Positions 5,683 to 59,762 of a stretch of 64,000 bases of DNA are shown piece after piece. A model generated the notes under the pieces. The model saw only the letters and a list, made by a program, of their open reading frames with translations. It was not told the origin of the DNA and did not search any database. Origin of the DNA: Tabrizicola flagellatus (GTDB lineage: Bacteria; Pseudomonadota; Alphaproteobacteria; Rhodobacterales; Rhodobacteraceae); contig NZ_JBKBLV010000003.1 in assembly GCF_046295235.1 (NCBI RefSeq), positions 39,589-103,588 on the forward strand, read 5' to 3'. Position numbers and translations under genes: made by a program. Each line of letters starts with the position of its first letter. Position 1 is the stretch's first letter.

Positions 5683-5719
5683 TTCACATTTTCATCTAGC
5701 AAGCTATATAGGTGAAAAT
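5683..5719 (+). promoter_or_regulatory. Putative sigma70 promoter with overlapping inverted-repeat operator upstream of the rhodanese gene
   Basis: TTCACA(5683)-N16-TATATA(5705). Inverted repeat ATTTTCATCTA-N10-TAGGTGAAAAT at 5688-5719, 10 of 11 positions match. Confidence 0.5.
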
Positions 5720-5737
5720 CCACAACCGAGGTGCTCC

Positions 5738-6097
5738 ATGTTCTCCTTTCTCCGTCCGGGCCAGACCACTGCACGTCCCAGCATCGCCGAAGTCGCCGAT
5801 CTGGTCGCGCAGGAAAGAATGGTTCTGCTCGACGTGCGCGAAGTCGCCGAGGCCAAGGCCTCGGGCATCGCCAAGGGCGCGCGGCTGATCCCGCTGTCGA
5901 TTCTGGGCATCAAGGCCGATCCGAAGCACCCGGACTGCGAACTGCCGCACGGGCTACCCATCGCGGTCTATTGCGCCTCGGGCGGGCGGTCGGGGATGGC
6001 GGCGGATGCGCTAACCCGGCTGGGCTACGGTCCGGTCTACAATCTTGGCGGCCTGCGCGACTGGGCGGCAGGCGGCGGCCAGGTCGTCGCCTACTAG
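5738..6097 (+). CDS. Single-domain rhodanese-like sulfurtransferase
   Basis: LLDVRE, GARLIPL, active-site YCASGGRS, VYNLGGLRDW. Confidence 0.9.
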   Translation: MFSFLRPGQTTARPSIAEVADLVAQERMVLLDVREVAEAKASGIAKGARLIPLSILGIKADPKHPDCELPHGLPIAVYCASGGRSGMAADALTRLGYGPVYNLGGLRDWAAGGGQVVAY

Positions 6098-7248
6098 AGC
6101 CGCAAGCGGCGGGCCTTCTGGACCGCGTGAACGGCGATTCCCAACGCTGAAAGCGTGACGGCAGCGATGGTCAGCCCGGCCGGCCCGGCGCTGGCCATGA
6201 GCGTGGCCAGAACCGGCGTGCCGGTCGTGGTGCCCAGATTGCCCAGTTGCGCCACCGCCCCGGCGGCGCGGGCGCGGTCCTCGGCGCTGGCGTTCAGCTC
6301 GGGGATCGCAGCAAAGCTCGCCCCCTGCACGATGCCGAGCGCGGCCGAAAGCAGGAAGCCCCCCGCCACCATCCCGGCCCCCTGCCCCCAGAACAGCCAC
6401 AGGAGCAGGAAGCCGGGGATCGCCACGGCATAGCCCGCCTGGACCAGCCGGACCGCGCTCATCCGGCCCAGGAGCCAGACCCCCAGCGTCAGCGAGACGG
6501 CGATGGAAACGAGCGGCATCCCCGCCGCTATCAGCGCGCGGTGGGTCGCGGGCGTTTCGGGCGGCAGCAGTGTCAGGACGGCGACGTAGAGGAAGGTATA
6601 GCAGCAGAACCCCATCGCCGGGGCCGCGAGGCGGGGCGAAGCGTAGATCCGGGCGTGCTGGGCCAGGAGGTTGTCCATCGGCAGCGCCTGGCCCCGGGGG
6701 TCGGGCGGCAGGGTCAGGGCGAGGATCGCCGCCAGCGCGGCCATCCAGGCGGCGTGGCCGAGGAAGAGGCCGGTCGGCGTTGCCATGGGTCCGATCAGCG
6801 CGAGGATCGTGTAGGTCACCCCGAAGAACGACGACCACAGCGTCATCGCCAGCGGCCGGCGGTGTTCGGGGGCAAGCGCGGCGATCATCGTCGGCCCGAC
6901 GACAACGATGGCAAGGTGGCTTGCCCCTTCCACGATCCGGCTGGCCAGCATCAGGGGGTAGGCGGGCAGCAGGCTTTGCAGCGCCGACATCGCCGCCCCT
7001 GCCGCCAGCGCCGCGACGATGGCCCGGCGCGGGCCAATCCGGGCGACCAGCAGGCCGGCGGTGGTGCCGAAGATCAGCCCGACCATGCCGACGATCGACA
7101 CGACGAGGCCAAGCGCGACTTCTCCCCCGCCGCCGTAGGTGGTGCGCAGGGTCTCGTAGAGGATCGAGATTTTCCCGAACTGGGCGGCGGCGCCAAGGCC
7201 GGCGGCCCAGAGAAGGAGGACGAGAAGCATGGGGGGAAGCGGGCGCAT
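6094..7248 (-). CDS. MFS transporter
   Basis: About 12 hydrophobic segments, motif-A-like LLVARIGPRR. Start MRPLPP chosen at 7248. Confidence 0.85.
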   Translation of the reverse strand: MRPLPPMLLVLLLWAAGLGAAAQFGKISILYETLRTTYGGGGEVALGLVVSIVGMVGLIFGTTAGLLVARIGPRRAIVAALAAGAAMSALQSLLPAYPLMLASRIVEGASHLAIVVVGPTMIAALAPEHRRPLAMTLWSSFFGVTYTILALIGPMATPTGLFLGHAAWMAALAAILALTLPPDPRGQALPMDNLLAQHARIYASPRLAAPAMGFCCYTFLYVAVLTLLPPETPATHRALIAAGMPLVSIAVSLTLGVWLLGRMSAVRLVQAGYAVAIPGFLLLWLFWGQGAGMVAGGFLLSAALGIVQGASFAAIPELNASAEDRARAAGAVAQLGNLGTTTGTPVLATLMASAGPAGLTIAAVTLSALGIAVHAVQKARRLRL

Positions 7249-7457
7249 GGGGCAGTCGTAACCGGAACGATCGCGCGACGCCAGAGCCTGTCCCGCTTGG
7301 ACAGATCGGGATAATCCTTCGGCGTCAGATGTTTGGCTGCGGGCGCCAGGGAATTCGCAAGAGTCTTCGCACGGCGACTCGGCCCGCTGCGGCCTTGTCG
7401 CAAAACGTGACTTCACAGCTTCATGTCGGACTTGCAAAGTTTTCATGAAAGTTCAGC

Positions 7458-7934
7458 ATGGCTTTCATGACACCTCTTGCCGCCGCCCTGCTGGCCACCG
7501 CCCTTCTCCTGGCCCCCGCGGCCCGGGCCGGCGAGCGATGCGCGCTGGTCGCCGGGCTGAATCGCGTCCTGACCGACAGCACCGCCTACGCGCCGGTCCC
7601 CTGCCCCGAGATCGGCTTCTCGGCGCTGGAGGGCGCGGCGGGCCTGCGCTCGCAGGCCGGGGCCTATTTCCCCGAGACCGGGCGGATCGAGCTGGCGCCG
7701 GATCTCGACCTGACCACCGCCTACGGGCAAAGCTTCCTCCTGCACGAGATGGTCCATGCCGCGCAGTTCGCGGAAGGTGCGGACGCCCGCGCGCCCTGCC
7801 CCGCCGCGCTGGAGGCCGAGGCCTACCGGGTGCAGGCCGATTTCCTGCATCGCGCCGGGCTGACCCGCGACGCGCTGCTGACCCGGATGCTGGGTGACCA
7901 GCTGGGCACCTGCGGGGCCGCGCCGGACTACTGA
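7458..7934 (+). CDS. Secreted HExxH protein (DUF6647-like)
   Basis: Signal peptide, LLHEMVHAAQ, CPAALEAEAY, several Cys. Confidence 0.7.
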   Translation: MAFMTPLAAALLATALLLAPAARAGERCALVAGLNRVLTDSTAYAPVPCPEIGFSALEGAAGLRSQAGAYFPETGRIELAPDLDLTTAYGQSFLLHEMVHAAQFAEGADARAPCPAALEAEAYRVQADFLHRAGLTRDALLTRMLGDQLGTCGAAPDY

Positions 7935-7941
7935 CCGGCGG

Positions 7942-8010
7942 CTCCTCGTCGGCTTCGCCGCTCGTCGCTGTAGGTTCCCCACCGACGAGGACCCGAAGGC
8001 GAACGAGGAG
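7942..8010. repeat. Four-heptamer palindromic repeat, copy B
   Basis: CTCCTCG-N12-CTCGTCG-N15-CGACGAG-N14-CGAGGAG between convergent genes. Confidence 0.8.
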
Positions 8011-8019
8011 GCGCAGGGG

Positions 8020-8577
8020 TCAGTCCTTCTGCGCCATGGCCCAGGTGACAACCGGAAAATCGGGATCGTCGGTCAGGTCGTCGTCGTCGCGCAGTTCCGG
8101 CGGCCAGGGAGTTTCGAGGTTCCGCCGCGCGACATGGCGGTTGCCCCATTGGTGCGCCTGGATCCGGTCCGCGGCGAACCCGGCCTCGATCAGCAGGTTC
8201 TTCAACCCCCGCGCCGTCCAGCGCGAACAGTCCACCGGGGCGGCGTGGTAGGGGATGAAGAAGGGCACCGCGAGCCAGAACCAGCCGCCCCTGCGCAGCA
8301 TCCGGTAGATGTTGCGGGTCGCGGCATGGGGGCGGTCCACATGTTCCCAGACCTGGTCCGCCATGATGAGGTCGAAGCGGACCACCTTGCCCGCCCCGTC
8401 CAGCATCGGCCCCTTGCAGGGGTCGAATTTCCAGCGGTTCAGCGCAAGATAGCTGCGGAACGGAAAGCTCTGGCCCCATTTTCCCGACAGTTCCAGCACA
8501 TCCAGCCGCTCGGGGCCGAGACTGGTGATCCAGTCCCGGCTGGCCTTCTGCACCACGACGCGGTTCAGCGACCGCAT
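8020..8577 (-). CDS. Class I SAM-dependent methyltransferase-like protein
   Basis: FDLIMADQVWEHV, RMLRRGGWFWLAVPF, DCSRWT. The ATG overlaps the lpdA stop (TGATG). Confidence 0.8.
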   Translation of the reverse strand: MRSLNRVVVQKASRDWITSLGPERLDVLELSGKWGQSFPFRSYLALNRWKFDPCKGPMLDGAGKVVRFDLIMADQVWEHVDRPHAATRNIYRMLRRGGWFWLAVPFFIPYHAAPVDCSRWTARGLKNLLIEAGFAADRIQAHQWGNRHVARRNLETPWPPELRDDDDLTDDPDFPVVTWAMAQKD

Positions 8578-9974
8578 CAGATGTGCAGCGCGCGTCCGTA
8601 GGCGTCGAGCACGGCCTCGTGCATCATCTCGGACAGGGTCGGATGCGGGAAGACGGTGTTCATCAGGTCTTCTTCCGTCGTCTCGAGCGTGCGGCCCACG
8701 ACATAGCCCTGGATCAGTTCCGTCACTTCCGCGCCGACCATGTGGGCGCCGAGAAGCTCGCCGGTCTTGGCGTCGAAAACGGTTTTCACCATGCCTTCCG
8801 GTTCGCCAAGCGCGATGGCCTTGCCGTTGCCGATGAAGGGGAAGCGGCCGACCTTGACCGTGTAGCCCGCGTCCTTCGCCTTCTGCTCGGTCAGGCCGAC
8901 CGAGGCTACCTGCGGGTGGCAATAGGTGCAGCCGGCGATGGAGTTGGGCTTGATCGGGTGCGGATGGCCGCCCGCGATCAGTTCGGCGACCATCACGCCC
9001 TCGTGGCTCGCCTTGTGCGCCAGCCAGGGCGCGCCCGCGATGTCGCCGATGGCGTAAAGCCCGGGAACCCCGGTGCGGCAGAATTCGTCGGTCACGACAT
9101 GGGTGCGGTCGATCTTCACCCCCAGCGCCTCGAACCCGAGGTTTTCCACGTTGCCGACGATGCCCACAGCCGAGATGACGGTGTCGAAGTCCTGCGTGGT
9201 GACCTTGCCGTCCTGTTCGATATGCGCGGTCACGCCCTTGCCGGGATGCCGGTCCAGCTTCTTGACCGCGGCCTTTTCCAGGATCTTCATGCCCTGCTTG
9301 ACGAACTGTTTCTTGGCAAAGGCGCTGATCTCGGCATCTTCAACCGGCAGGATGCGGTCCATCACCTCGACCACAGTGGTATCGGCGCCAAGCGTGTTGA
9401 AGAAGCTGGCGAATTCGATACCGATGGCGCCCGAGCCGATCACCAGAAGCTTCTTCGGCATCCGGCTGGCGACCAGCGCGTGCTTGTAGGACCAGACCAG
9501 ATCGCCGTCGGCCTCGAGCCCCGGCAGCTCGCGCGCGCGGGCGCCGGTGGCGAGGATGATGTGCTTCGCCGTCAACTCCTCGCTGCCCTTGTCGGTCTTG
9601 ACGCTGACCGTGCCCTGCTTCGGCAGCGTAGCAGTGCCCATGAACACGGTGACCTTGTTCTTCTTCATCAGGTGGCCGATCCCGCCCGAAAGCTGTTTCG
9701 CCACCGCGCGGCTGCGCGCGACGACGGCGGGCAGGTCGTAACCGATTGCTTCCGCCTTCAGTCCGAATTCCTTGGCGCGGTGCATCAGGTGGAAGACCTC
9801 GGCGCTGCGCAGAAGCGCCTTCGTCGGGATGCAGCCCCAGTTCAGGCAGATGCCGCCCAGATGTTCGCGTTCGACGATGGCGACCTTCAGGCCCAGCTGG
9901 CTGGCCCGGATGGCGGCGACATAGCCCCCCGGTCCGGCACCGATCACGATCACGTCGAAGCTTTGGGCAGCCAT
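8577..9974 (-). CDS. lpdA: Dihydrolipoamide dehydrogenase
   Basis: GAGPGGY, GGICLNWGCIPTK redox disulfide, HPTLSE. Confidence 0.97.
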   Translation of the reverse strand: MAAQSFDVIVIGAGPGGYVAAIRASQLGLKVAIVEREHLGGICLNWGCIPTKALLRSAEVFHLMHRAKEFGLKAEAIGYDLPAVVARSRAVAKQLSGGIGHLMKKNKVTVFMGTATLPKQGTVSVKTDKGSEELTAKHIILATGARARELPGLEADGDLVWSYKHALVASRMPKKLLVIGSGAIGIEFASFFNTLGADTTVVEVMDRILPVEDAEISAFAKKQFVKQGMKILEKAAVKKLDRHPGKGVTAHIEQDGKVTTQDFDTVISAVGIVGNVENLGFEALGVKIDRTHVVTDEFCRTGVPGLYAIGDIAGAPWLAHKASHEGVMVAELIAGGHPHPIKPNSIAGCTYCHPQVASVGLTEQKAKDAGYTVKVGRFPFIGNGKAIALGEPEGMVKTVFDAKTGELLGAHMVGAEVTELIQGYVVGRTLETTEEDLMNTVFPHPTLSEMMHEAVLDAYGRALHI

Positions 9975-48748: not shown

Positions 48749-49054
48749 CTATTTCGCGGCCGGTCCGAGCGTCAACCGGACTTCGGACGCGCAGGCCATG
48801 TAGCTGGCGCGGGCGGAATGGCCGTTGCCCGCAGAGGACCGGCCGGTCCGCTCTTCGGCGGCCACCCGGCGCAGCGCGAGGCAGGTCTGGACCTTGTCGG
48901 TGTAATCGGCCCTGAGGGCCTGGCATTCGGCCGAGGCCGAGCCGGTGGCGCCGGTCAGGGGGCAGTTTTCCGGCATCCGGGCGGCGGTCTCGGCCAGAAG
49001 GGGTGTGGCGCCTGCCGCGAACAGGGCAAGCAGCGACGCGATGAGGGTTTTCAT
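48749..49054 (-). CDS. Small secreted four-Cys protein
   Basis: MKTLIASLLALFAAGATPLLA signal peptide, 4 Cys, GGAGA RBS. Confidence 0.65.
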   Translation of the reverse strand: MKTLIASLLALFAAGATPLLAETAARMPENCPLTGATGSASAECQALRADYTDKVQTCLALRRVAAEERTGRSSAGNGHSARASYMACASEVRLTLGPAAK

Positions 49055-49297
49055 CCCGATCTCCGTTCAAATGGATCTGTCTGAAAATGCGCTTCCCCTT
49101 CCCCGGATCGCGGCGAAGGACAGGGTCTGGTCTAGGGCATCAGCGTGATTTTCGCGTGACACCAGCGCCAAATCGGTAGCGGGCCGGGCAACCCTGGCGC
49201 CGGAACGCTGGATTAGGGTGGATTTCCCGATCGTCGTCTGTTGAAAGGCCGCGTGTCTCTGTGCATCGTTAACCTCCGTAATCCCGAACGGTATCGC

Positions 49298-51316
49298 ATG
49301 TTTCGCTTCCAGGTTGATCTCCTCGGTGCCTGCCGGGTCGCGCGTGTCGCGACCGGAGAGGAACTGGCGTTCCGGACGCGGAAGACGCGGCTGCTTCTTG
49401 GCCTTCTCCTGCTGTCGCCCGGCCAAAGGATGAACCGCGAACAGCTTGCCTCGCTCCTCTGGGACCCCGCGCCCGAATCGCTGGCGCGTTCCAGCCTGCG
49501 GCAGGCGCTGCGCGAGCTGAAGGAAGTGCTGGGACCGGAGAACGAGGACGTGGTCGAGGCCGACCGCTTTTCCGTCGGTCTGAAGGCTCAGGCCTTCGAC
49601 CTGGACGTGCGCCGGTTCCGCGAGCTGATCGCGACGGCGGTGCATGACCAGAACGCGCTCCTGTCGGCTGCGGCACTGTGGCAGGGAGAGCTTTTCGGCC
49701 CGGCCCAGCCCAGCGCGCCGGTCTTCGAGGCCTGGTTGCAGATCGAACGGTCGCAGCTGCGGTCGGTCCTGACCTCGGCCCTGACCGACCAGCTGGAAAA
49801 GCTGATCGCAGCCAATGCCTTCACCGATACACGCATCGCCGAGGAATTGGTGCGGGTGGAACCCAGTCACGAACTGGCGCACCAGTTCATCATGCGGTTC
49901 CACGCCCAGCGCGGCGACCAGTCGGCGGCCTTGCGGCAATACGCGCTTTTGCAACAGGCGCTGGCCGAGGAACTGGACAGCGAGCCGAGCGAGGCCTCGA
50001 ATGCGCTGCTGGTCGCGATCAAGAGCGGCGAGGTCTCGTTGCAACGTCCGGCCACGGCGCCGGTGGCACCGGCCGCGCCCCTGACGCGCAGCGGCCCGCC
50101 GCGGATCACCATCCGCCCGCCGCTGACCCGCTACACCGACAACAGCAAGGACTATCTAGGCGAGGGCTTTGCTTTCCTGGCCAAGTCCTGCCTGTCACGG
50201 TTCCGCTGCTGGATCGTCATCCCCTGGCCATCGAGCGGCTTCGACTCGACCACCGCTGTGGACTTCACCGCCGTCGGCCAGGTGATCGACGCCGATTTCG
50301 CAGTGGACTGCGTGCTGGACTGGCGCACGGGCAGCGGCAAGCTGTTCGTCACCCTGATCGACTGCCGAGACGGCAGCGAGGTCTGGTCCGAGCTTTACCC
50401 GGTGGCCGAGCACGAGTTGCAGGAGGTCAGCTCCTCCGTCGCGGGCGCGGTGGCGGCGAACCTGGCCAGCCAGGTGAACCACATCACCCTGTTGCGCCAC
50501 GCGCGGTCCACGCCGGGCAATCCGGTGGCCTATGACCTGTGGCTGAAGGGACACCAGTTGTCGCGGCTCTGGTCGGCCGAGGCGGATGCGCAGGCCGAGG
50601 CTCTGTTCCTGAAGGCGATCGAGCTGGATCCGGGGCTGGCCGGGAGCCACGCGAGCCTGGCGCAGGTCCTGAGCACGCGCTGCATGGTCCGGCCGGGCTA
50701 TCCCAACCGCAAGGCCGATTGCGCCGCGGCCTTCAAGCACGCGCGCGAGGCCATCGCACTCGACCCCTACGATCCGCGCTGCCACATCAGCATGGCCTGG
50801 AACTGGGCCATCGCGCGGTCGCCGGAACGGGCCAATTCGCATTTCCGGCTGGCGGTGGACATGAACCCGCACGATGCCGAGACGCTGATCGCGGCGGCGA
50901 GCGGGCTGGGCTTCCTCGGCCATGTCGATCTGGCGAAGGACCTTGCCCAGCAGGCCCTGCGGCTGAACCCGATCTATCCGGAATATTACATCGCCTATCT
51001 GGCCGGCATCCACTTCATGGCGGGCGACCACGAGGCGACAATCGCCACGGTCGAGAAATGCCCCGATGGCTTTCCGGACCTCGGGGTCTGGGCGGTGGCA
51101 TCCTATGCGCATCTCGGCCGGGCAGAAGAGGCGGCGCGCGCCTACGGAACCTTCCGCCGGATCGCGACGCAGATGTGGGAGGGCGGCTCTGCCCCGACCG
51201 AGGAAGAGCTGGAGGCCTGGGTGCTGGACACTCTGCCGATCAACTGGCCCGAGGGCCGGCTGGCCCTGCAGAAGGGCATAAGGCTGGCCCGGGCCATGGC
51301 GGTAGAGGCCGCCTGA
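49298..51316 (+). CDS. SARP-type activator: winged HTH-BTAD, central domain and TPR repeats
   Basis: LGLLLLSPGQRMNREQLASLLW..ARSSLRQAL..LK, LWQGELF, EPSHELAH..IMR..ALRQY, TPRs (AIELDPGLA, AIALDPYD). ATG at 49298. Confidence 0.88.
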   Translation: MFRFQVDLLGACRVARVATGEELAFRTRKTRLLLGLLLLSPGQRMNREQLASLLWDPAPESLARSSLRQALRELKEVLGPENEDVVEADRFSVGLKAQAFDLDVRRFRELIATAVHDQNALLSAAALWQGELFGPAQPSAPVFEAWLQIERSQLRSVLTSALTDQLEKLIAANAFTDTRIAEELVRVEPSHELAHQFIMRFHAQRGDQSAALRQYALLQQALAEELDSEPSEASNALLVAIKSGEVSLQRPATAPVAPAAPLTRSGPPRITIRPPLTRYTDNSKDYLGEGFAFLAKSCLSRFRCWIVIPWPSSGFDSTTAVDFTAVGQVIDADFAVDCVLDWRTGSGKLFVTLIDCRDGSEVWSELYPVAEHELQEVSSSVAGAVAANLASQVNHITLLRHARSTPGNPVAYDLWLKGHQLSRLWSAEADAQAEALFLKAIELDPGLAGSHASLAQVLSTRCMVRPGYPNRKADCAAAFKHAREAIALDPYDPRCHISMAWNWAIARSPERANSHFRLAVDMNPHDAETLIAAASGLGFLGHVDLAKDLAQQALRLNPIYPEYYIAYLAGIHFMAGDHEATIATVEKCPDGFPDLGVWAVASYAHLGRAEEAARAYGTFRRIATQMWEGGSAPTEEELEAWVLDTLPINWPEGRLALQKGIRLARAMAVEAA

Positions 51317-51360: not shown

Positions 51361-51741
51361 TCAGCGGCAGTGCCGCATGAAATAGCGTGCGAGCAGCACC
51401 TTGAACCGGGTCGTCTTGCCGTTGCCGTAGGACGGTTCGTCCACCACGTCGGGCACGGTCTTCAGCACGTCCGCCGAGGGGATGCGGACATGCATCCGGT
51501 TCGGCGTGTCATAGACCGGCACGATCTGCACGCTGTCGGGGATCTCGCCGTTCGGGCCGGCGCCGGGACCGTCGTAGCGGTAGCCGTTGGCATGCAGCCA
51601 GCCGCGCGTGTCGTCGTTGAACTTCTTCCATTCCGAATTCGGCGTGTCCTTGAACACGCTTTTCGCAACTCGCAGGATCGCCTCGCCGGTCTGTTCCTGG
51701 TCGGCGATCGAATTGTTCTTGAGATTGAAGAACCCCACCAT
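51361..51741 (-). CDS. NHLP-leader-like protein, candidate RiPP precursor
   Basis: IPDSVQIVPVYDTPNRMHVRIP resembles the NHLP/nitrile hydratase alpha segment. C-terminus YFMRHCR. GGGAGA RBS. Confidence 0.65.
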   Translation of the reverse strand: MVGFFNLKNNSIADQEQTGEAILRVAKSVFKDTPNSEWKKFNDDTRGWLHANGYRYDGPGAGPNGEIPDSVQIVPVYDTPNRMHVRIPSADVLKTVPDVVDEPSYGNGKTTRFKVLLARYFMRHCR

Positions 51742-51873: not shown

Positions 51874-52944
51874 TTGAATACGCGCATGAAGCAAAATCCG
51901 GCCGAGATGATCGCCAAGATGGCGCGCGCCCTGGGCGAGGATTTCCACCTCATGGCCCTGGACGCACCCGAGGCACCGCTGTTCCTGGCCGTCGCCCTGC
52001 CGACGGAAGAGGGGGTGACGGGGTTGAAGCCGCGTCTGCCGGCGGGACGGGGGCTGACGCCGCAGCAGGCGATGCTGGCGGCGGGGGCCGAGGCGCTGGA
52101 GCTGCGGGCAAGCCTGGCGCAGCACCACCTCCCGGACCTGCGCACCCTGCCGCGGCGCGACGGGATCGCCATGGTCGCGGCGACCGATCTGGTCAGCGGC
52201 GAGACGGTCGAGGTGCCGGCGCAGGAGGTCTATCTCGACTGCGCGGCGGTCCTGGGCGAGCCCCTGCGCCAGGATGCCGATTCCACCGGCTGCGCGGTGG
52301 GGCCCGACCGCGACAGCGCCTTGGCGCGGGGCCTGTGGGAATGTGTGGAACGCGATGCGGTGGCGCTGTGGTGGCACGGTCGCCGGCCCGGCGGGGCGGT
52401 GGCGACCGAGATCATCGATGCGCACCAGCCGAGGCTCTTCTGGTGGCTGCACCAGCGCGCCCGCGAGACCCGGCTGATCGAGGTGACCAGCGACATCGGC
52501 CTGCCGGTGGTGGTGGCGGTGGCCGCCGATCCGGACGGGCGGAGGGTTGCCATGGGCTCGGCCGCGCGGCCGGTGCTGGCGGATGCGGCACTCGCCGCGG
52601 TGACCGAGATGGTGCAGACCGAGGTCAGCCTCGACCATGCGCGCGAGGCGGGCGACCCGGAGGCCGCCGCCTGGCTGGCCGCGGCCTCGCTGGCCGATCA
52701 GCCGCAGTTCCGTCCGGGGCCGGAACGGGCCACGCCGCCGCTGGAGATGGCCGGGCTGCTGGAACGGCTGGGCGGGCTGGGCCAGCGGGCGCTGGGGGTC
52801 GAGATGACCCTGCCGGGCGACCCGCTCCCCTCGGTGCGGGTCCTGGTGCCCGGGCTTTGCGCGATGCGGGGCCGGACGCAGTGCCCGCGCTTTGCCCGGC
52901 TTTGTCCCGACCTGCCGCCCCCGACCCTGCCCGAACCCTTCTGA
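51874..52944 (+). CDS. Stand-alone YcaO-family ATP-dependent peptide-modifying enzyme
   Basis: GRGLT..A...A.EALE, STGCAVG, ECVERDA, AVTEMVQ, Pro-rich C-terminus PPPTLPEPF. Start uncertain: TTG 51874, ATG 51886 or ATG 51907. Confidence 0.9.
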   Translation: MNTRMKQNPAEMIAKMARALGEDFHLMALDAPEAPLFLAVALPTEEGVTGLKPRLPAGRGLTPQQAMLAAGAEALELRASLAQHHLPDLRTLPRRDGIAMVAATDLVSGETVEVPAQEVYLDCAAVLGEPLRQDADSTGCAVGPDRDSALARGLWECVERDAVALWWHGRRPGGAVATEIIDAHQPRLFWWLHQRARETRLIEVTSDIGLPVVVAVAADPDGRRVAMGSAARPVLADAALAAVTEMVQTEVSLDHAREAGDPEAAAWLAAASLADQPQFRPGPERATPPLEMAGLLERLGGLGQRALGVEMTLPGDPLPSVRVLVPGLCAMRGRTQCPRFARLCPDLPPPTLPEPF

Positions 52945-52957
52945 CCGCGAGGCCGCC

Positions 52958-54625
52958 ATGCCGCCGATCTCGACCCCGCACAGCCTGTTCGGTCCGGCAC
53001 CCGCAGCGCCGAGGGCCGAAGCGGCGGGGGCCTCTCAGTCGGGCTACTGCTATCTGTTCCCGGATCTGGCCCAGCGGGCCGATGTCGGCTGCTTTCGCGG
53101 CACCACTCCGGCCGAGACCTTCCGGCGGCTCAGGGCCTTCGAGAAGGACAGCCGCACCGCCCTGACCACGCCGCAGGTTCTGCCGATGCGGCTGGCGCCG
53201 GTCTACACCTACTTCGGACAGTTCGTGAACCACGACATCTCGGCCCCGGTGGGCGATGTGGTCACGCGGCCCGCTCCGCCCGAGGGCACCGGCGTGATCG
53301 ACGCCGGGCTGCCGCCCGGGCTGGACCGGGTCCACCGGGCCTCGCCCAGGGTGATCCTGGCGAATTTCGTCAACGAACAGGCCGAGCCCCTGGCGCTGGA
53401 CAGCCTGTACGGCGACGGGCCGGACAGCGCCGACCCGGGGATCCGGGCGCTTTATGCCACGGACGGCAAGCGGTTCCGGCTGGGCAGGACCAGGCGCGAG
53501 CCGCCGGAATTCTTTGAGGAAAAGGGCCTGAAGCCCGCGCGCATCCATCACGACTGGGACGCGCCCGACATCCTGCGCCGGGACGGGCAGCCGCTGATCG
53601 CCGACCGGCGGAACGACGAGAACCTGATCGTCAGCCAGCTGCACCTGGCGCTGATGCTGGTCCACAACAAGGCCGTCGCCGCGCTGGAAGGCGAGGCCCC
53701 GGATGCGGCGACCTGTTTCGCCCGCGCCCGGCAGCTGGTCACGCTGCATTACCACTGGCTGATCCTGCACGATTTCCTGACGAACCTCCTGTCGCCTGCC
53801 ACTCTGGCGACGCCCTTCGCCAACCGGGCGCAGAAGCTGCCCGGCCCGCGGCTGGTACCCCTGGAATTCACCACTGCCGCATTTCGCTTTGGCCATTCCA
53901 TGGTCGGGGCCAGCTATGACTTCAACCGCAACTTCGGCCACGGCGGGCGGATCGACCGCCGGGGGGCCAAGCTGCAGGACCTGTTCGACTTCACCACCCA
54001 TCGCAACATGGGCCAGCCGGGCATGGCCGAGACGCTGCAACTGCCCGACCACTGGGTGATCGACTGGAACCGGATGACCCGGACGCCGAAGGGCGCCACC
54101 GGGGCCGAGCGGATCGACCTGACCTTCGCGCCGGGGATGCTGAGCGCGATGGGCACCTCCGAGATCGCCGTGCACGGGTCGATCCTGTTCCGCAACCTGA
54201 TGCGCGGCTTCCAGCGCCGGATCGCCTTTGGCCAGGTGCTGGCCGAGGCCTGCGGGCTGGAGGCGCTGGACGAGAACCAGCTGCGCGACGCGCTGCCGGA
54301 AAGCGCGCCGGGCATGCTGGGGCTGCGCGAGCTGGCCGAGGAGCTGGGCATGCTGGCCGAGACCCCGGCCTGGCTGTATGTCCTGGCCGAGGCGCGGCAC
54401 CATGGCGCGGGCGAGCGGCTGGGTCCGGTCGCCAGCGAGATCATCGCCGACACGATCATCGGCCTGATGCGCCACATGCCGCAGTCGATCCTGAACCATC
54501 AGGGCGGCGGTTGGCATCCGAGACTGAGCCCGCTCAAGGGCCCAGGCAAACGGGCGCTGACCTCGCTGCGATCCTTCCTGCGCTTTGCCGTGCAGGATTC
54601 CCACATGGATGTCGCGCCGGCGTGA
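52958..54625 (+). CDS. Animal-type heme peroxidase (peroxidase-cyclooxygenase superfamily)
   Basis: YTYFGQFVNHD (distal Gln/His), RRNDEN (distal Arg/Glu), AFRFGHSM (proximal His), TPAWLYVLAEA, LGPV. Confidence 0.9.
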   Translation: MPPISTPHSLFGPAPAAPRAEAAGASQSGYCYLFPDLAQRADVGCFRGTTPAETFRRLRAFEKDSRTALTTPQVLPMRLAPVYTYFGQFVNHDISAPVGDVVTRPAPPEGTGVIDAGLPPGLDRVHRASPRVILANFVNEQAEPLALDSLYGDGPDSADPGIRALYATDGKRFRLGRTRREPPEFFEEKGLKPARIHHDWDAPDILRRDGQPLIADRRNDENLIVSQLHLALMLVHNKAVAALEGEAPDAATCFARARQLVTLHYHWLILHDFLTNLLSPATLATPFANRAQKLPGPRLVPLEFTTAAFRFGHSMVGASYDFNRNFGHGGRIDRRGAKLQDLFDFTTHRNMGQPGMAETLQLPDHWVIDWNRMTRTPKGATGAERIDLTFAPGMLSAMGTSEIAVHGSILFRNLMRGFQRRIAFGQVLAEACGLEALDENQLRDALPESAPGMLGLRELAEELGMLAETPAWLYVLAEARHHGAGERLGPVASEIIADTIIGLMRHMPQSILNHQGGGWHPRLSPLKGPGKRALTSLRSFLRFAVQDSHMDVAPA

Positions 54626-54762
54626 TCGGCCCGGCAACGGGCTGGACAGAGGCAAGGTTTCGCTTCATAGACGCGCTCGTCGGGCGAGGTGCGCCGCGCC
54701 GGTCCCGGCCAGCTACGCAACGAAGATGCGCCGGTAACGGCCGAGCAGAGACGCCTTCGCCC

Positions 54763-55251
54763 ATGACCCCTGACCCGATCCCGTCACACCCGCGGTCGCC
54801 CGCCCTGGCCCGCCGTTTGGCCCTGGTCCTGATCCTGCCGCTGGGGGCCTGCGCCGACGCAACCAGCACCATGCAGCTTTACCCGCTGTCGGGCGAGATC
54901 GCGGATGCCGATCCGACCCTGGTCATCAAGGCGGTGGCGAAGAATACCAACAGCACCTCCGGCCCCCTGACCTTCCGCCTGCCCAAGCGCGGCAAGTGCA
55001 CCGGCACCTGGACCTCGCTGACCCCGCGGGTGGTGTCGAACTCGCAGGGGATGGCGCTGACGCTGAAGAAGACCGGGGGCGAGGTCGGCACCAAGCGCGA
55101 GACCGTGGCCGGGGTGAACAACGGCGAGATCTATGCCGTCTGCGACGACGGCACCCGGGTGCAGGGCACCTTCGTCATCGGGTCGGGCACGGCCAGCGGC
55201 ACGGGCCAGGCCAGCGACACCAACGGCAACGTCTACAAGCTTCTGTTCTGA
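54763..55251 (+). CDS. Putative lipoprotein
   Basis: Lipobox LGAC after a hydrophobic stretch, Gly/Thr-rich beta-type mature part. Confidence 0.7.
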   Translation: MTPDPIPSHPRSPALARRLALVLILPLGACADATSTMQLYPLSGEIADADPTLVIKAVAKNTNSTSGPLTFRLPKRGKCTGTWTSLTPRVVSNSQGMALTLKKTGGEVGTKRETVAGVNNGEIYAVCDDGTRVQGTFVIGSGTASGTGQASDTNGNVYKLLF

Positions 55252-55257
55252 CGGCCG

Positions 55258-56376
55258 TCAGGTCGGCCGGCGCCCGGAGAGGGCGTCGTCCAGCACCGCG
55301 CGGACGGCTTCGGTCGGCACGTCCTCGGCCACGAAGGCCCGTCCGATCCCGCGCGCGAGGATGAAGCGCAACCGGCCGTCCACCACCTTCTTGTCCTGCC
55401 CCATCAGCGCGATCAGCGCCTCGGCCCCCGGCAGATCGCCCGGAATGTCGGCCAGATCGACCTTCATCCCCATCGCCGCCAGATGCGCCCGGACGCGCGA
55501 GGGTTCCTCCTGGCTGCACAGACCCAGCCGCGCCGACAGCGCGAAGGCCAGCGTGCAGCCGATCGCCACGCCTTCGCCGTGCAGCAGGCGGTCGGAATAG
55601 CCGGTGGCCTTTTCCAGCGCGTGACAGAAGGTGTGGCCAAGGTTCAGGAGCGCGCGCTCGCCTTCCTCTGTTTCGTCACGAGAAACGATCCCGGCCTTCA
55701 TCTCGACCGACCGCGTCACCGCTCGCAGCCGTGCGGCCGGATCGCCCGCCCGGATCGCGGGGCCGTCGCGTTCCAGCCAGCCGAAGAAGGCGGCATCGCC
55801 GAGAAGGCCGTATTTCACCACCTCGCCATAGCCCGACAGGAAATCGCGGTCGGGCAACGTGTCGAGGACGGAAATGTCGGCGAGCACGAGGCTTGGCTGG
55901 TGGAAGGCGCCGACGAGGTTCTTGCCTTGCGCGGTGTTGATCCCGGTCTTGCCGCCGACCGAGCTGTCCACCTGCGCAAGAAGCGTCGTCGGCAATTGCA
56001 CGAAACGCACCCCACGGCGCAGGATCGCGGCGGAAAAGCCCACGAGGTCGCCGATCACCCCGCCGCCGAAGGCCAGCACCACGTCGCGGCGTTCGACCTT
56101 CTGCTCCAGCAGCCATTCGGTGCAGCGGGCGAGGTTTTCCCAGTTCTTCGTGCCCTCGCCCGGCGGCAGGGCCAGCGCGGCAGAGGCGATGCCCGCAGCC
56201 TGAAGCGCCGCGGTCAGCGCCGGCAGGTGGCGGGCGGCGACGGTTTCCTCGGTGACGATGGCCACACGGGGACGACGCAAGAGCGGCGCGATCTCCTCGC
56301 CCGCGCGCGCGATCAGGCCGGGGCCGATCCGCACCTCGTAGGACCGATCCCCCAGATCCACCGCAACCCTGTTCAA
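55258..56376 (-). CDS. aroB: 3-dehydroquinate synthase
   Basis: GGGVIGD, PTTLLAQVDSSVGGKTG, LNLGHTFCHA. TTG start overlaps the aroK stop. Confidence 0.97.
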   Translation of the reverse strand: MNRVAVDLGDRSYEVRIGPGLIARAGEEIAPLLRRPRVAIVTEETVAARHLPALTAALQAAGIASAALALPPGEGTKNWENLARCTEWLLEQKVERRDVVLAFGGGVIGDLVGFSAAILRRGVRFVQLPTTLLAQVDSSVGGKTGINTAQGKNLVGAFHQPSLVLADISVLDTLPDRDFLSGYGEVVKYGLLGDAAFFGWLERDGPAIRAGDPAARLRAVTRSVEMKAGIVSRDETEEGERALLNLGHTFCHALEKATGYSDRLLHGEGVAIGCTLAFALSARLGLCSQEEPSRVRAHLAAMGMKVDLADIPGDLPGAEALIALMGQDKKVVDGRLRFILARGIGRAFVAEDVPTEAVRAVLDDALSGRRPT

Positions 56377-56918
56377 CTTGCGTCCTCCAGCACATCCGGC
56401 CGTGATTTCAGCGCCTCGCGCACCCGTCTGGCCATCTCCTCGATGGACTTGTCCGGCTGGCTTTCCACCACGATGTCGGCCAGCGCATAGAACGGCTGAC
56501 GCGCCTCGTAAAGCTGGCGCAGCGTCTCGCGCGGGTTGGGGGTGCGCAGAAGCGGCCGCGTCGTCTTGTGCCGCACGCGCTGCCACAGAAGGTCGAGGTC
56601 CGCCTTCAGCCAGACCGAGACTCCGACATCGTGAATCAGCTTGCGGTTCGCCTCGGACAGGAAGGCGCCGCCGCCGGTGGACAGGATGCAGGGCGTGCCG
56701 CGCAGGAGACGGGCGATGACCTCGGTCTCGCGGGCGCGGAAGAAGGGTTCGCCGTCGCGTTCAAAGATCTCGGCGATGGAGCGGTTGGCGGCGCGGACGA
56801 TCTCTTCGTCGCTGTCGCGGAACTCCACCCCCAGCTGACGGGCAAGGGCGGTGCCGACGGCCGTCTTGCCCGCACCCATCATCCCCACCAGCACAACCGT
56901 CTTCGCCAGCCCCGCCAT
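56373..56918 (-). CDS. aroK: Shikimate kinase
   Basis: GMMGAGKT, FRARE, STGGG, RPLL. Confidence 0.96.
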   Translation of the reverse strand: MAGLAKTVVLVGMMGAGKTAVGTALARQLGVEFRDSDEEIVRAANRSIAEIFERDGEPFFRARETEVIARLLRGTPCILSTGGGAFLSEANRKLIHDVGVSVWLKADLDLLWQRVRHKTTRPLLRTPNPRETLRQLYEARQPFYALADIVVESQPDKSIEEMARRVREALKSRPDVLEDAS

Positions 56919-57118
56919 GTCCCTCCGGTTCCCGCCGCGCCGTTCCCGGGCAAGGACTTGCCGACAGGAAATCTTTCCCCCTCAATGGCGTGAACTCTTG
57001 CCGAATGCTATATACATTCGCACGGATACCTGCGACGGGCGCCCCGAAGGGCGGACCGGCGCGGCAACAAGCGCCCATGGGATGAAGCCCATGGCAGAAG
57101 TCGAGGAAGGGCTATCAC

Positions 57119-57256
57119 ATGGGTCGGATCATCAAGGCTTTCCTGTTGCTGGTGATTCTTGGCTTCCTCGGGCTGACCGTCTATGCCTATCTGGGCGACC
57201 TGACCCCGGTGCAGGGCGAGGTCAAGAAGCCAGTGGTGTTGAATGCGGACGGGTAG
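57119..57256 (+). CDS. 45-aa single-TM small protein (absent from the ORF track)
   Basis: MGRIIKAFLLLVILGFLGLTVYAYLGDLTPVQGEVKKPVVLNADG. GAGGAAGG RBS. Overlaps the start of the next gene. Confidence 0.7.
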   Translation: MGRIIKAFLLLVILGFLGLTVYAYLGDLTPVQGEVKKPVVLNADG

Positions 57257-58811
57257 TGCCGGTGTCCTTTTCCTGATCCTGTCGCTGCAGCCGGCCCCGG
57301 CGCAGGAGGCCGGCACCACCGGCGGGCCGCTTTCGGCGATCGACTGGCTGTCGCAATCGGTGGCAACCCCGGCGACCGCCGTCCCGGAGGCTGGCACCAC
57401 CAAGCCGGACGAGCCGCCAGTCGCCGCTGCCGGAAGCGCCCTGCCCTCGACTGTAACGACATCCTCGCTGGACGGGCCCTCACCAGACGGCGTGGGGCTG
57501 ATCGCCCCGGCAGCGTCCGGCTTGCCGCGCAACCTTTGGGGTGCCGGCCTGACCCGCGAAATCGCCGAAAGCCTGGTCACGCATCCCGACGACGCGCTGC
57601 CGGCGCTGCGCCAGCTGTTCCTGACGATCCTTCTGGCCGAACTGGAGGCTCCGGCAGATGCCGGAGGCCGGGGCGAGCTCCTTCTGGTGCGCGTCGACAA
57701 GCTGCTTGCGCTGGGGGCGCTGGAACAGGCAGCGGCGCTGATCGAGGCGGCGGGGGTCACGACGCCCGAACTTTTCCGCCGGAGCTTCGACGTGGCGCTG
57801 CTGACGGGGTCCGAGGACCGCGCCTGCGCAAGCATGGCCAGCAAACCTCACCTGGCGCCGACGCTTCCTGCGCGTATCTTCTGCCTGGCGCGGTCGGGCG
57901 ACTGGGACACCGCCGCGCTTACCATCCGCACCGCAAGCGCGCTGGGACAGATCAGCCCCGACCAGGAGGCGCTGCTGTCACGCTTCCTCGACCCCGACCT
58001 CTACGAGGGCGAGCCGGTGCCGCCGGCGCCGAACCCGGTCACGCCGCTCGACTGGATGATCTATGCCGCAATCGGCGAGCCGCTACCGACAGACGGCCTG
58101 CCGATCGCCTTCTCCTATGCCGAATTGGGGCCACGGTCGGGCTGGAAGGCCCGGATCGAGGCGGCCGAGCGGCTGACCCGCGCCGGAACCATCCCTCCGA
58201 ACGTCATCCTCGGACTCTACACCGAAAGCACCCCGGCCGCATCCGGCGGGGTCTGGGACCGTGCGGCGGCCTTCCAGGCCTTCGATGCCGCCATCGCCTC
58301 GGGCAGTGCAGAGCGCGTCGCGGCCACGCTTCCCGCTGTCTGGGCCAGGATGCAGGAGGTCGAGCTGGAGGTGCCCTTTGCCACGCTTTACGCCAAGGCG
58401 CTGCTGGACCTCCCACTGGCCGGAGAGGCAGCGGCCATCGCCTTCCGGGTCGGCCTTCTGTCGCCGCAGTCCGAGACCTGGGCGCGGCAGGCCAGCCCGG
58501 CCACGCCGGAAGACGCCTTCCTGACCGCGATCGCGCTTGGCCGCGGGGCCGAGGCGCTGCCGCCCGACAGCATGGGGCGGGCGATCTCGGCCGCCTTCCG
58601 CGCCCCTGCCCCTTCGACCGAGGGACAGCGGCTGCTGGACGAGAACCGCACCGGCGAGGCGGTCCTGGTCGCCATCGACAGCATCGGGCGCGGCGTCAAG
58701 GGCGACCTGCGCGGTGTGACAGAAGGCCTGTCGATCCTGCGGCTCGCGGGACTGGAGGCCGTGGCCCGGCGCACGGCGCTGGAGTTGATGATCCTGGAAC
58801 GCAGGGGCTAG
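57243..58811 (+). CDS. Exported hypothetical protein upstream of xerD
   Basis: Signal-like N-terminus, Ala-rich helical body, apparent operon with xerD. Confidence 0.8.
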   Translation: MRTGSAGVLFLILSLQPAPAQEAGTTGGPLSAIDWLSQSVATPATAVPEAGTTKPDEPPVAAAGSALPSTVTTSSLDGPSPDGVGLIAPAASGLPRNLWGAGLTREIAESLVTHPDDALPALRQLFLTILLAELEAPADAGGRGELLLVRVDKLLALGALEQAAALIEAAGVTTPELFRRSFDVALLTGSEDRACASMASKPHLAPTLPARIFCLARSGDWDTAALTIRTASALGQISPDQEALLSRFLDPDLYEGEPVPPAPNPVTPLDWMIYAAIGEPLPTDGLPIAFSYAELGPRSGWKARIEAAERLTRAGTIPPNVILGLYTESTPAASGGVWDRAAAFQAFDAAIASGSAERVAATLPAVWARMQEVELEVPFATLYAKALLDLPLAGEAAAIAFRVGLLSPQSETWARQASPATPEDAFLTAIALGRGAEALPPDSMGRAISAAFRAPAPSTEGQRLLDENRTGEAVLVAIDSIGRGVKGDLRGVTEGLSILRLAGLEAVARRTALELMILERRG

Positions 58812-58817
58812 GCGGCC

Positions 58818-59762
58818 ATGCCCGACCCCGAGTCGAGCCGGTGGATCTCGACCTTCCTGGACGCAAGGGCCGCCGACCTCGGGGCGGCGCGCAACACGCA
58901 GTTGGCCTATGGCCGGGATCTTGTGGATTTCGCCGACTGGCTGAACCGCCGCGGGTCGGACCTGGCCGGGGCCGACCGTGCGGCGGTCGAGGACTACCTC
59001 GTGCGCTGCGACGCCGAGGGCCTGTCGCAGGCCACCCGCGCGCGGCGGCTGTCCTCGATCCGGCAGCTTTACCGCTTTGCCTTCGAGGAAGGCTGGCGCG
59101 CCGACAATCCCGCGCTGCGGCTGACCGGCCCCGGCAAGGCGCAGGGCCTGCCGAAGACCCTGAGCGAGGCCGAGGTCGCGCGGCTGATGGAGGCCGCCCG
59201 GACCCGGGGCCGGACGGAAGCCGACCGGCTGCGCGACACGGCGCTGTTCGAGTTGCTCTATGCCACCGGCCTGCGCGTCAGCGAACTGGTCGGCCTGCCG
59301 GTGGCGGCGGTGCGCGGCGATCCCCGGATGATCCTGGTGCGCGGCAAGGGCGACAAGGAGCGGATGGTGCCCCTGTCCACCCCTGCCCGCGCGGCGCTGG
59401 CGGCTTGGCTTGCCCACCGGGACAGGGCCGAGGAGGCCGCGCGACAGCAAGGGCGCGCGCCGTCGCGCTTTCTCTTTCCCGGCGAAGGGCGCGAGGGGCA
59501 TCTGACACGGCAGTACTTCCACGCGCTGGTGAAGGATGTTGCGGTGCTGGCCGGGATTTCGCCGGCCCGCGTCACGCCGCATGTGCTGCGCCATGCCTTC
59601 GCAACGCATCTTCTGGCCAACGGCGCGGACCTGCGGGTGATCCAGACCCTCCTGGGCCACGCCGATGTGTCCACGACCGAGATCTACACCCATGTGCTGG
59701 ACGACCATCTGAAGGACCTTGTCCTGACCCGCCACCCCCTGGCCCGCAAGACCCGAGACTGA
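58818..59762 (+). CDS. xerD: Tyrosine recombinase XerD
   Basis: LYATGLRVSEL, VRGKGDKERMVP, TPHVLRHAFATHLL, LLGHA, TEIYTHV. Core-genome context. Confidence 0.92.
   Translation: MPDPESSRWISTFLDARAADLGAARNTQLAYGRDLVDFADWLNRRGSDLAGADRAAVEDYLVRCDAEGLSQATRARRLSSIRQLYRFAFEEGWRADNPALRLTGPGKAQGLPKTLSEAEVARLMEAARTRGRTEADRLRDTALFELLYATGLRVSELVGLPVAAVRGDPRMILVRGKGDKERMVPLSTPARAALAAWLAHRDRAEEAARQQGRAPSRFLFPGEGREGHLTRQYFHALVKDVAVLAGISPARVTPHVLRHAFATHLLANGADLRVIQTLLGHADVSTTEIYTHVLDDHLKDLVLTRHPLARKTRD

Follow-up and report, generated by a model that had tools for sequence, protein, structure and literature searches.

A YcaO-linked clade of animal-type haem peroxidases with a probable role in an undescribed modification pathway

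In a 64,000-nucleotide stretch of DNA from Tabrizicola flagellatus (contig NZ_JBKBLV010000003.1), referred to here as the window and numbered from its first letter, the gene at 52958-54625 encodes a haem peroxidase of the animal type that lies immediately downstream of the gene for a stand-alone YcaO enzyme. From its sequence and its setting, this peroxidase probably performs the oxidation step of a hitherto undescribed pathway that modifies a protein or peptide. New here are the single origin of the YcaO-linked peroxidases, the replacement of an ester-link Asp by Asn as a synapomorphy of that clade together with relaxation at the second ester-link residue, a Glu, the contrast with stand-alone sister sequences that are canonical at these positions, and the exact three-way co-occurrence of the peroxidase with YcaO and a small protein. 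A first-pass annotation, made from the letters of the window and a list of open reading frames (ORFs), had proposed that the enzyme probably tailors a YcaO-modified peptide by oxidation, aromatic cross-linking or halogenation.

The peroxidase and its gene

The features of the gene and of the spacer before it are given below, with the strand and the evidence for each; the motif coordinates were checked by translating the window coordinates.

52958..54625, + strand: haem peroxidase of 555 amino acids, of the YcaO-linked clade of the peroxidase-cyclooxygenase superfamily (PF03098, AlphaFold2 (AF2) model, Foldseek, clade placement)
53216..53236, + strand: distal motif GQFVNHD, with Gln88, Asn91 (which replaces the ester-link Asp), distal His92 and Asp93 (translation)
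53606..53623, + strand: RRNDEN, with distal Arg218 and Glu221, the second ester-link position (translation, profile alignment)
53882..53899, + strand: FRFGHS, with proximal His313 and, three residues before it, Arg310 (translation, profile alignment)
52945..52957, + strand: YcaO-peroxidase spacer of 13 nucleotides with a GAGG ribosome-binding site (spacing comparison over 48 loci)

The encoded protein belongs to the mainly α-helical peroxidase-cyclooxygenase superfamily. It scores 40.8 bits against PF03098 (An_peroxidase), for which the cut-off is 25, with an aligned core of residues 213-324 out of 555, and among the matches listed this family was present in all of at least 120 homologues; no NCBIfam model matched the peroxidase. 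A search of the PDB with the single sequence was marginal (E 0.007), and a profile of 33 relatives found 8s6c, MPO, EPO, LPO and DdPoxA at E values of 1e-10 to 1e-7. In these profile alignments RRNDEN is paired with the distal Arg and the ester Glu of MPO, FRFGH falls on the proximal His, and GQFVNHD lies opposite GQFLDHD in the cyanobacterial peroxidase 8s6c. The AF2 model has a predicted local distance difference test score (pLDDT) of 78 and a predicted template modelling score (pTM) of 0.85. In a Foldseek search it matched MPO (7oih) with an E value of 5e-11 and a template modelling (TM) score of about 0.53, the best matches being MPO, 8s6c, DdPoxA (6erc), LPO and DUOX at E 5e-11 to 1e-8, with weaker matches to the alpha-dioxygenases and cyclooxygenases (E 1e-6 to 1e-5). 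There were 76 PDB matches at E <= 0.001 and all 50 of those listed belong to this superfamily.

The residues expected for peroxidase catalysis are in place. Gln88, His92, Arg218 and His313 are invariant across the 90-92 sequences that could be compared, with His313 present in all 92, and Asp93, Asn222 and Arg310 are invariant or nearly so in the peroxidase alignment. The position of Arg310, three residues before the proximal His, is one that we take to hold the catalytic Tyr of the cyclooxygenases (COX) and alpha-dioxygenases, where the motif is YHWH or YRxH; here it is Arg in 89 of the 90 sequences scored, and a role as a dioxygenase is therefore disfavoured.

The window is high-GC DNA, rich in guanine and cytosine, and at the protein level it matches Tabrizicola flagellatus, which belongs to the Paracoccaceae (Rhodobacterales), at 94-98% identity. 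Codon-position GC picks out the genes of the regulator, the small protein, YcaO and the peroxidase described below. By this measure the ORF of the peroxidase, which spans 52892-54625 on the + strand, is coding, with a GC content at the third codon position (GC3) of 0.90. The start supported within it is the ATG at 52958, because a GAGG lies 8 nucleotides upstream and the N-terminus MPPIxxxH is kept in the orthologues. The stop codon of YcaO is at 52942-52944 on the same strand, so that 13 nucleotides separate the two genes, and this spacing is similarly tight in relatives, with a median of 21.5 nucleotides and a range of 6-39 nucleotides in 46 of 48 loci. Between 48600 and 55400 a scan for consensus promoters gave no promoter-like site, and a scan for terminators gave two terminator-like sites, no more than are obtained from shuffled sequences. 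No signal peptide was seen in the peroxidase by inspection of hydropathy and motifs (the highest 10-residue hydropathy within the first 60 amino acids is 0.66), a twin-arginine motif is absent and there is no membrane-like segment, the highest 19-residue hydropathy being 1.33. On these sequence features the peroxidase is a cytoplasmic protein. The description of the gene in the first-pass annotation is in good agreement with these results: the lack of a signal peptide is borne out, translation and profile alignment both reproduce the distal Gln/His and Arg, the proximal His, the retained Glu of RxxE and the Asn of GQFVNHD, and co-transcription with YcaO, which had been described as apparent, is consistent with the shared strand and the close, conserved spacing.

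A single YcaO-linked clade without the ester-link aspartate

For the comparison of loci one genome was taken per species, giving 80 loci in which neighbours were found by tblastn with the proteins of the window. YcaO lies directly upstream of the peroxidase in all 47 of the linked loci that have upstream sequence. These 47 loci, which come from Rhodobacterales, Hyphomicrobiales and other or unclassified Alphaproteobacteria and extend down to 37% peroxidase identity, carry a cassette whose gene order, regulator (+), small protein (-), YcaO (+) and peroxidase (+), is the same in every alphaproteobacterial locus with upstream sequence. Downstream of the peroxidase the flank is variable, with 21 different contexts among 39 loci.

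A maximum-likelihood tree of 94 rows (quick search, LG+G4), in which 92 homologues were compared, took as its root the pair of peroxidase domains in a 2950-amino-acid protein whose gene lies at another place in the window's own genome. The YcaO-linked peroxidases form one clade of 49 rows, with a Shimodaira-Hasegawa-like approximate likelihood ratio test (SH-aLRT) value of 99, consisting of the 47 linked sequences and two whose contig ends at the peroxidase. Outside it are 43 stand-alone relatives; 32 come from other phyla, and the remaining 11 belong to the same family but to different genera. As all of the linked sequences are monophyletic, the linkage to YcaO therefore arose once and was retained. 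No conserved neighbour was found for the 32 homologues of Actinomycetota, Acidobacteriota and other phyla. Distant homologues of the peroxidase (28-43% identity) also occur in 16 other genera of the family, and in the 11 of these genera that were inspected neither YcaO nor the small protein nor the regulator lies beside them.

The same association is seen when the genes are looked for one at a time. Each of the three was searched on its own across 251 sampled genera of the family, whose genomes are related and so are not independent samples. The peroxidase orthologue (>50% identity) was found in only three genomes, and the small protein and the orthologous YcaO in those three and no others, with the genes adjacent in each; within this sample the small protein is thus confined to genomes that carry the peroxidase orthologue. 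Joint decay is visible in one locus, L043 from a Pseudorhodobacter sp. metagenome-assembled genome (MAG), where at 5697-9125 the peroxidase is reduced to a match over residues 133-496, there is no YcaO and the small protein, which has a foreign N-terminus, is interrupted by a stop, with the regulator and an EamA transporter gene intact. The conserved linkage and the phylogeny of the YcaO-linked peroxidases, which the first-pass annotation had named as tests of its proposal, are accordingly those of one well-supported clade with strict co-occurrence in the family.

The clade is also set apart by the residues that in related peroxidases form ester links to the haem. At position 91 Asn is found in 46 of the 47 linked sequences and Ser in the remaining one, with Asp in none, as against Asp in 40 of the 43 stand-alone relatives. 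Position 221 is Glu in 27 of the 47, Gly in 15 and another residue in five, so that the Glu has been replaced in 20 sequences, and is Glu in 42 of the 43 stand-alone relatives. Further residues specific to the clade are Ser95, Pro97, His365 and Arg420. The expectation of at most one ester link, stated in the first-pass annotation, is right for the protein of the window, which has Asn91 and keeps Glu221, and the single remaining link is not a conserved requirement, because the Glu is replaced in 20 of the 47 members. These substitutions indicate that covalent attachment of the haem became dispensable across the YcaO-linked clade. The change of Asp91 to Asn or Ser coincides with the linkage to YcaO and Glu221 is relaxed, as would be expected if the enzyme had been recruited to a new substrate other than halide.

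Three further sequences were seen in the course of these comparisons. A peroxidase orthologue at G057:C111:10715-12352, the same sequence as locus L028 from Cypionkella sp., has one in-frame TGA, which may reflect a broken gene or a sequencing error. A Pseudonocardiaceae MAG carries a tandem pair of stand-alone peroxidases that retain both Asp and Glu (L057:7623-11223). The reading frame of about 2950 amino acids that provided the root lies on contig C23 of the window's own genome at about 52889-59053 on the - strand (loci L081-L085); its protein, with two An_peroxidase domains, is probably secreted, and it is unrelated to the cassette.

The cassette and the likely part of the peroxidase in it

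The partners of the peroxidase in the window, and a recurrent neighbour, are the following.

51874..52944, + strand: stand-alone YcaO of 356 amino acids, whose start may be the ATG at 51886 (PF02624, 132.9 bits)
51361..51741, - strand: small protein of 126 amino acids with the tail A-R-Y-F-M-R-x-C-R, the probable substrate (orthologue alignment, AF2, co-occurrence)
49241..51316, + strand: SARP/BTAD-TPR regulator, the fourth constant member of the cassette (PF03704; in all linked loci with enough flank)
48749..49054, - strand: secreted small protein of 101 amino acids with several Cys and a clear signal peptide, a possible accessory (recurrent upstream neighbour)

The best NCBIfam match of YcaO is to TIGR03604 (SagD-type cyclodehydratases), under the cut-off of that model, and there is a weak match to TIGR03266 as well. 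The 44 YcaO orthologues keep ExxE, STGCA, ExxERD, ExxQ and a C-terminal EP[FY], with EALEL as the first acidic motif. Within the clade the C-terminus is invariably Glu-Pro-Phe/Tyr (52933-52941 in the window) and not the PxPxP tail that is typical of azoline-forming YcaO enzymes.

The small protein is highly conserved over its whole length and its tail, A-R-Y-F-M-R-x-C-R, is invariant. Its AF2 model has a pLDDT of 87.6, falling to a mean of 63 over the last 6 residues; in this model a helix at 109-121 carries Tyr120 and Phe121, and about the last six residues, including Cys125, are predicted to be flexible. With 24 members of the family no NCBIfam match was found even at E 10, and there was neither a PDB profile match nor a Foldseek match. 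The identification of the small protein as a nitrile hydratase leader peptide (NHLP) or a relative of nitrile hydratase alpha was considered and ruled out by the hidden Markov model (HMM), PDB profile and fold searches. The likely substrate is this folded small protein rather than an NHLP peptide, and the precursor that the first-pass annotation had presumed, if thought of as a classical leader-core peptide, gives way here to a confidently folded protein of 126 amino acids.

In the scheme that we infer for haem binding, the substrate, the order of the steps and the chemistry, YcaO would spend ATP on activating the backbone at the small protein's flexible C-terminal end, where it would most likely close Cys125 onto the carbonyl that precedes it, forming a thiazoline. 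The peroxidase, which would be made from the same mRNA as YcaO, would bind haem b without a covalent bond or with one ester link at the most and would oxidise the tail of the small protein using H2O2 (or O2 and a reductant). Our best guess for this oxidation is the conversion of thiazoline to thiazole, the slot that elsewhere is occupied by a flavin mononucleotide (FMN) dehydrogenase or by the cytochrome P450 BotCYP; there is no FMN dehydrogenase or other oxidase within the cassette besides the peroxidase. Alternatively, the invariant Tyr120 might be oxidised to a radical that then cross-links. Taken singly, any one of the proposed oxidation chemistries is unlikely. The broader parts of the scheme are firmer: it seems very likely that the peroxidase and YcaO work in the same pathway, and somewhat likely that the peroxidase acts directly on the tail of the small protein. 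As a whole, the view that the peroxidase is the dedicated oxidising enzyme of the cassette, acting on the tail after its modification by YcaO, is one that we hold with moderate confidence.

Several points weigh against this view. The proposed substrate is folded, most of its conserved tail being predicted to form a helix packed on the domain, with some six end residues flexible. As Cys125 is not C-terminal, an oxidative decarboxylation of the BotCYP type cannot apply as such. No obvious pattern is seen when residue 221 of the peroxidase, for which E, G, Q, D, S and N occur, is set against the variable residue 124 of the tail, which may be H, K, R, Q or S. The cassette has no protease, nor an E1/RRE partner. 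Finally, an EamA/DMT transporter of about 295 amino acids is encoded beside the regulator in about 20 loci, which include most of those outside the Tabrizicola-like group, and its presence in many relatives is a hint that the product is something small for export and not a modified protein. The transporter gene is placed just upstream of the regulator in L019, L022, L024, L025, L027-L034, L036, L038 and L043, and after the peroxidase on the opposite strand in L044 and L045, the loci that diverge most. The transporter may serve to export a product; in the window's own genome, which is 96% complete, it was not found at E <= 1e-10.

The transporter also enters into the main rival explanation, which we regard as improbable. 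Here the small protein would serve the peroxidase as a subunit or as the carrier of a cofactor, YcaO would introduce a heterocycle or another backbone change into the tail of the small protein (or into the peroxidase), and the holoenzyme would oxidise a small molecule that EamA/DMT exports. Such a role would suit a small protein that is confidently folded, has a novel fold and is conserved throughout, unlike hypervariable cores, and would suit a cassette without a protease, as well as a transporter that is found beside the regulator in so many loci and is rearranged in L044 and L045. Some YcaO enzymes do modify proteins rather than peptides, an example being the thioamidation of McrA, and TIGR03266 has its weak match here. 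The transporter is absent, however, from the genome of the window and its close relatives, so it is not essential, and no genes of a small-molecule pathway are conserved around the cassette; moreover, an invariant penultimate Cys on a flexible end has the classic geometry of a YcaO substrate.

An enzyme of the halogenase type, in which hypohalous acid or a bound halogenating species acts on Tyr or another residue of the peptide, seems highly improbable. The superfamily does hold the halide-oxidising MPO, LPO, EPO and LspPOX, and the distal His/Arg/Gln triad is intact. In this superfamily, however, both the redox potential and the capacity for oxidising chloride and bromide, for which the links are needed, depend on how many ester bonds are present, and the one-bond enzyme DdPoxA produces neither hypochlorous acid (HOCl) nor hypobromous acid (HOBr) (PMC5787809). 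With Asp91 lost from all 47 linked sequences and Glu221 dispensable, being absent from 20 of them, halogenation through HOCl or HOBr is therefore unlikely, and free hypohalous acid would be damaging in the cytoplasm, where this enzyme is placed. Of the three chemistries in the first-pass annotation, halogenation would thus be the least likely. It is also very doubtful that the enzyme is a stress peroxidase of a general kind, or a fatty-acid dioxygenase, with YcaO as no more than a neighbour. Its fold is common to the alpha-dioxygenases and cyclooxygenases, and stand-alone relatives without conserved neighbours exist, but co-occurrence and adjacency are strict in every linked locus across the 21 flanking contexts, the linked clade is monophyletic, the fold search scores peroxidases above dioxygenases, and Arg stands where the Tyr of COX or the alpha-dioxygenases would be expected. 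With the linkage conserved in a monophyletic clade that shows strict co-occurrence, a dedicated role in the YcaO pathway is the best reading. Of the earlier proposal of peptide tailoring, then, the conserved context supports a dedicated place in a YcaO pathway, and the loss of the ester-link residues speaks against the halogenation that it had included.

More tentatively, and with rather less confidence than in the dedicated role itself, it may be that a branch of the peroxidases that had lost its covalent haem links was recruited once as the oxidative partner of a stand-alone YcaO, and that together they convert the invariant Y-F-M-R-x-C-R tail of a folded scaffold to a new heterocycle or cross-link, possibly released and exported as a small molecule.

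Among the other neighbours, the secreted protein of 101 amino acids adjoins the regulator upstream, and about 14 other loci have weak homologues of it (32-38% identity) at a distance of 1-4 kb upstream of the cassette. An ORF of 80 amino acids at 54879-55121 on the - strand, between the peroxidase and aroB, has a GC3 of 0.95 and no family match; it was rejected as a part of the cassette, being found, at 62-91% identity, only in the Tabrizicola-like group. An Opp-type ABC transporter, a phosphodiesterase, aroB/aroK and xerC were rejected likewise, as they are conserved only in that group. The upstream context that appeared in tblastx to be shared is accounted for by the EamA/DMT transporter in the loci outside Tabrizicola and by paralogy of ABC ATPases, and the 80-amino-acid ORFs of 'cluster 5' look like antisense shadows of the EamA gene.

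Significance and comparison with known systems

The enzyme superfamily and the logic of the pathway, a YcaO enzyme combined with a haem oxidant, are known; the fold is not known to have been seen in this role before. In the full-text literature searched, which leaves out most subscription journals, no paper was found that describes a gene cluster with both YcaO and a haem peroxidase, animal-type or other. If the proposal is correct this would be the first use of the animal-type peroxidase fold in the maturation of a ribosomal peptide or protein, and the range of enzymes that cooperate with YcaO would gain a new haem fold. Bacterial members of the superfamily are numerous but, to our knowledge, a physiological role is established for very few of them; in the present case an entire clade has a constant set of partners (YcaO, the small protein and the regulator) and a clade-defining loss of Asp, which makes its function directly testable. 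The clade is also a natural experiment on the purpose of covalent haem links. With just four constant genes, and with cultured strains among its carriers, the cassette is one whose chemistry could be worked out quickly by co-expression and mass spectrometry.

The closest functional analogy to the role inferred for the peroxidase is with BotCYP, the P450 of the bottromycin pathway, a haem enzyme that follows a stand-alone YcaO in the pathway and, by oxidative decarboxylation, renders aromatic a thiazoline close to the C-terminus of the peptide (PMC10591300), so that the precedent invoked in the first-pass annotation is a real one. The P450 fold of BotCYP is, however, unrelated to the peroxidase-cyclooxygenase fold, and its thiazoline is C-terminal, whereas in the small protein an invariant Arg follows the Cys.

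The nearest relatives in sequence, at 28-37% identity, are the stand-alone sequences annotated as 'peroxidase family protein' (L046-L097) from Actinomycetota, Acidobacteriota and other Paracoccaceae. They have in common with the peroxidase of the window the N-terminal pattern MPR(L)xHG...FD(F/Y)LFP, and no signal peptide is visible on inspection of the N-terminus. They differ in having the canonical Asp and Glu, in being about 100 amino acids longer in Actinomycetota and in lacking YcaO, the small protein and the regulator as neighbours. Among bacterial proteins the best structural and profile matches are the short peroxidases LspPOX and that of Cyanobacterium TDX16 (8s6c), which are single-domain proteins that resemble the peroxidase of the window in size and share its distal and proximal residues. 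Both keep GQFLDHD and the Glu, in contrast to the peroxidase described here with its Asn91 and its place in a YcaO cassette, and LspPOX, which has been characterised, has two ester bonds and oxidises bromide (PMC5787809).

DdPoxA of Dictyostelium discoideum (6erc; PMC5787809) resembles the peroxidase of the window in superfamily and fold, in the absence of the ester-link Asp and in keeping the Glu position, and with its Glu link only it has a lower redox potential and no oxidation of chloride or bromide. It is a secreted, glycosylated eukaryotic enzyme with an antimicrobial role, whereas the peroxidase described here is a cytoplasmic bacterial protein, about 16% identical to it, encoded in an operon-like arrangement with YcaO. 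Unlike the single Glu link of DdPoxA, moreover, the Glu is dispensable in the YcaO-linked clade.

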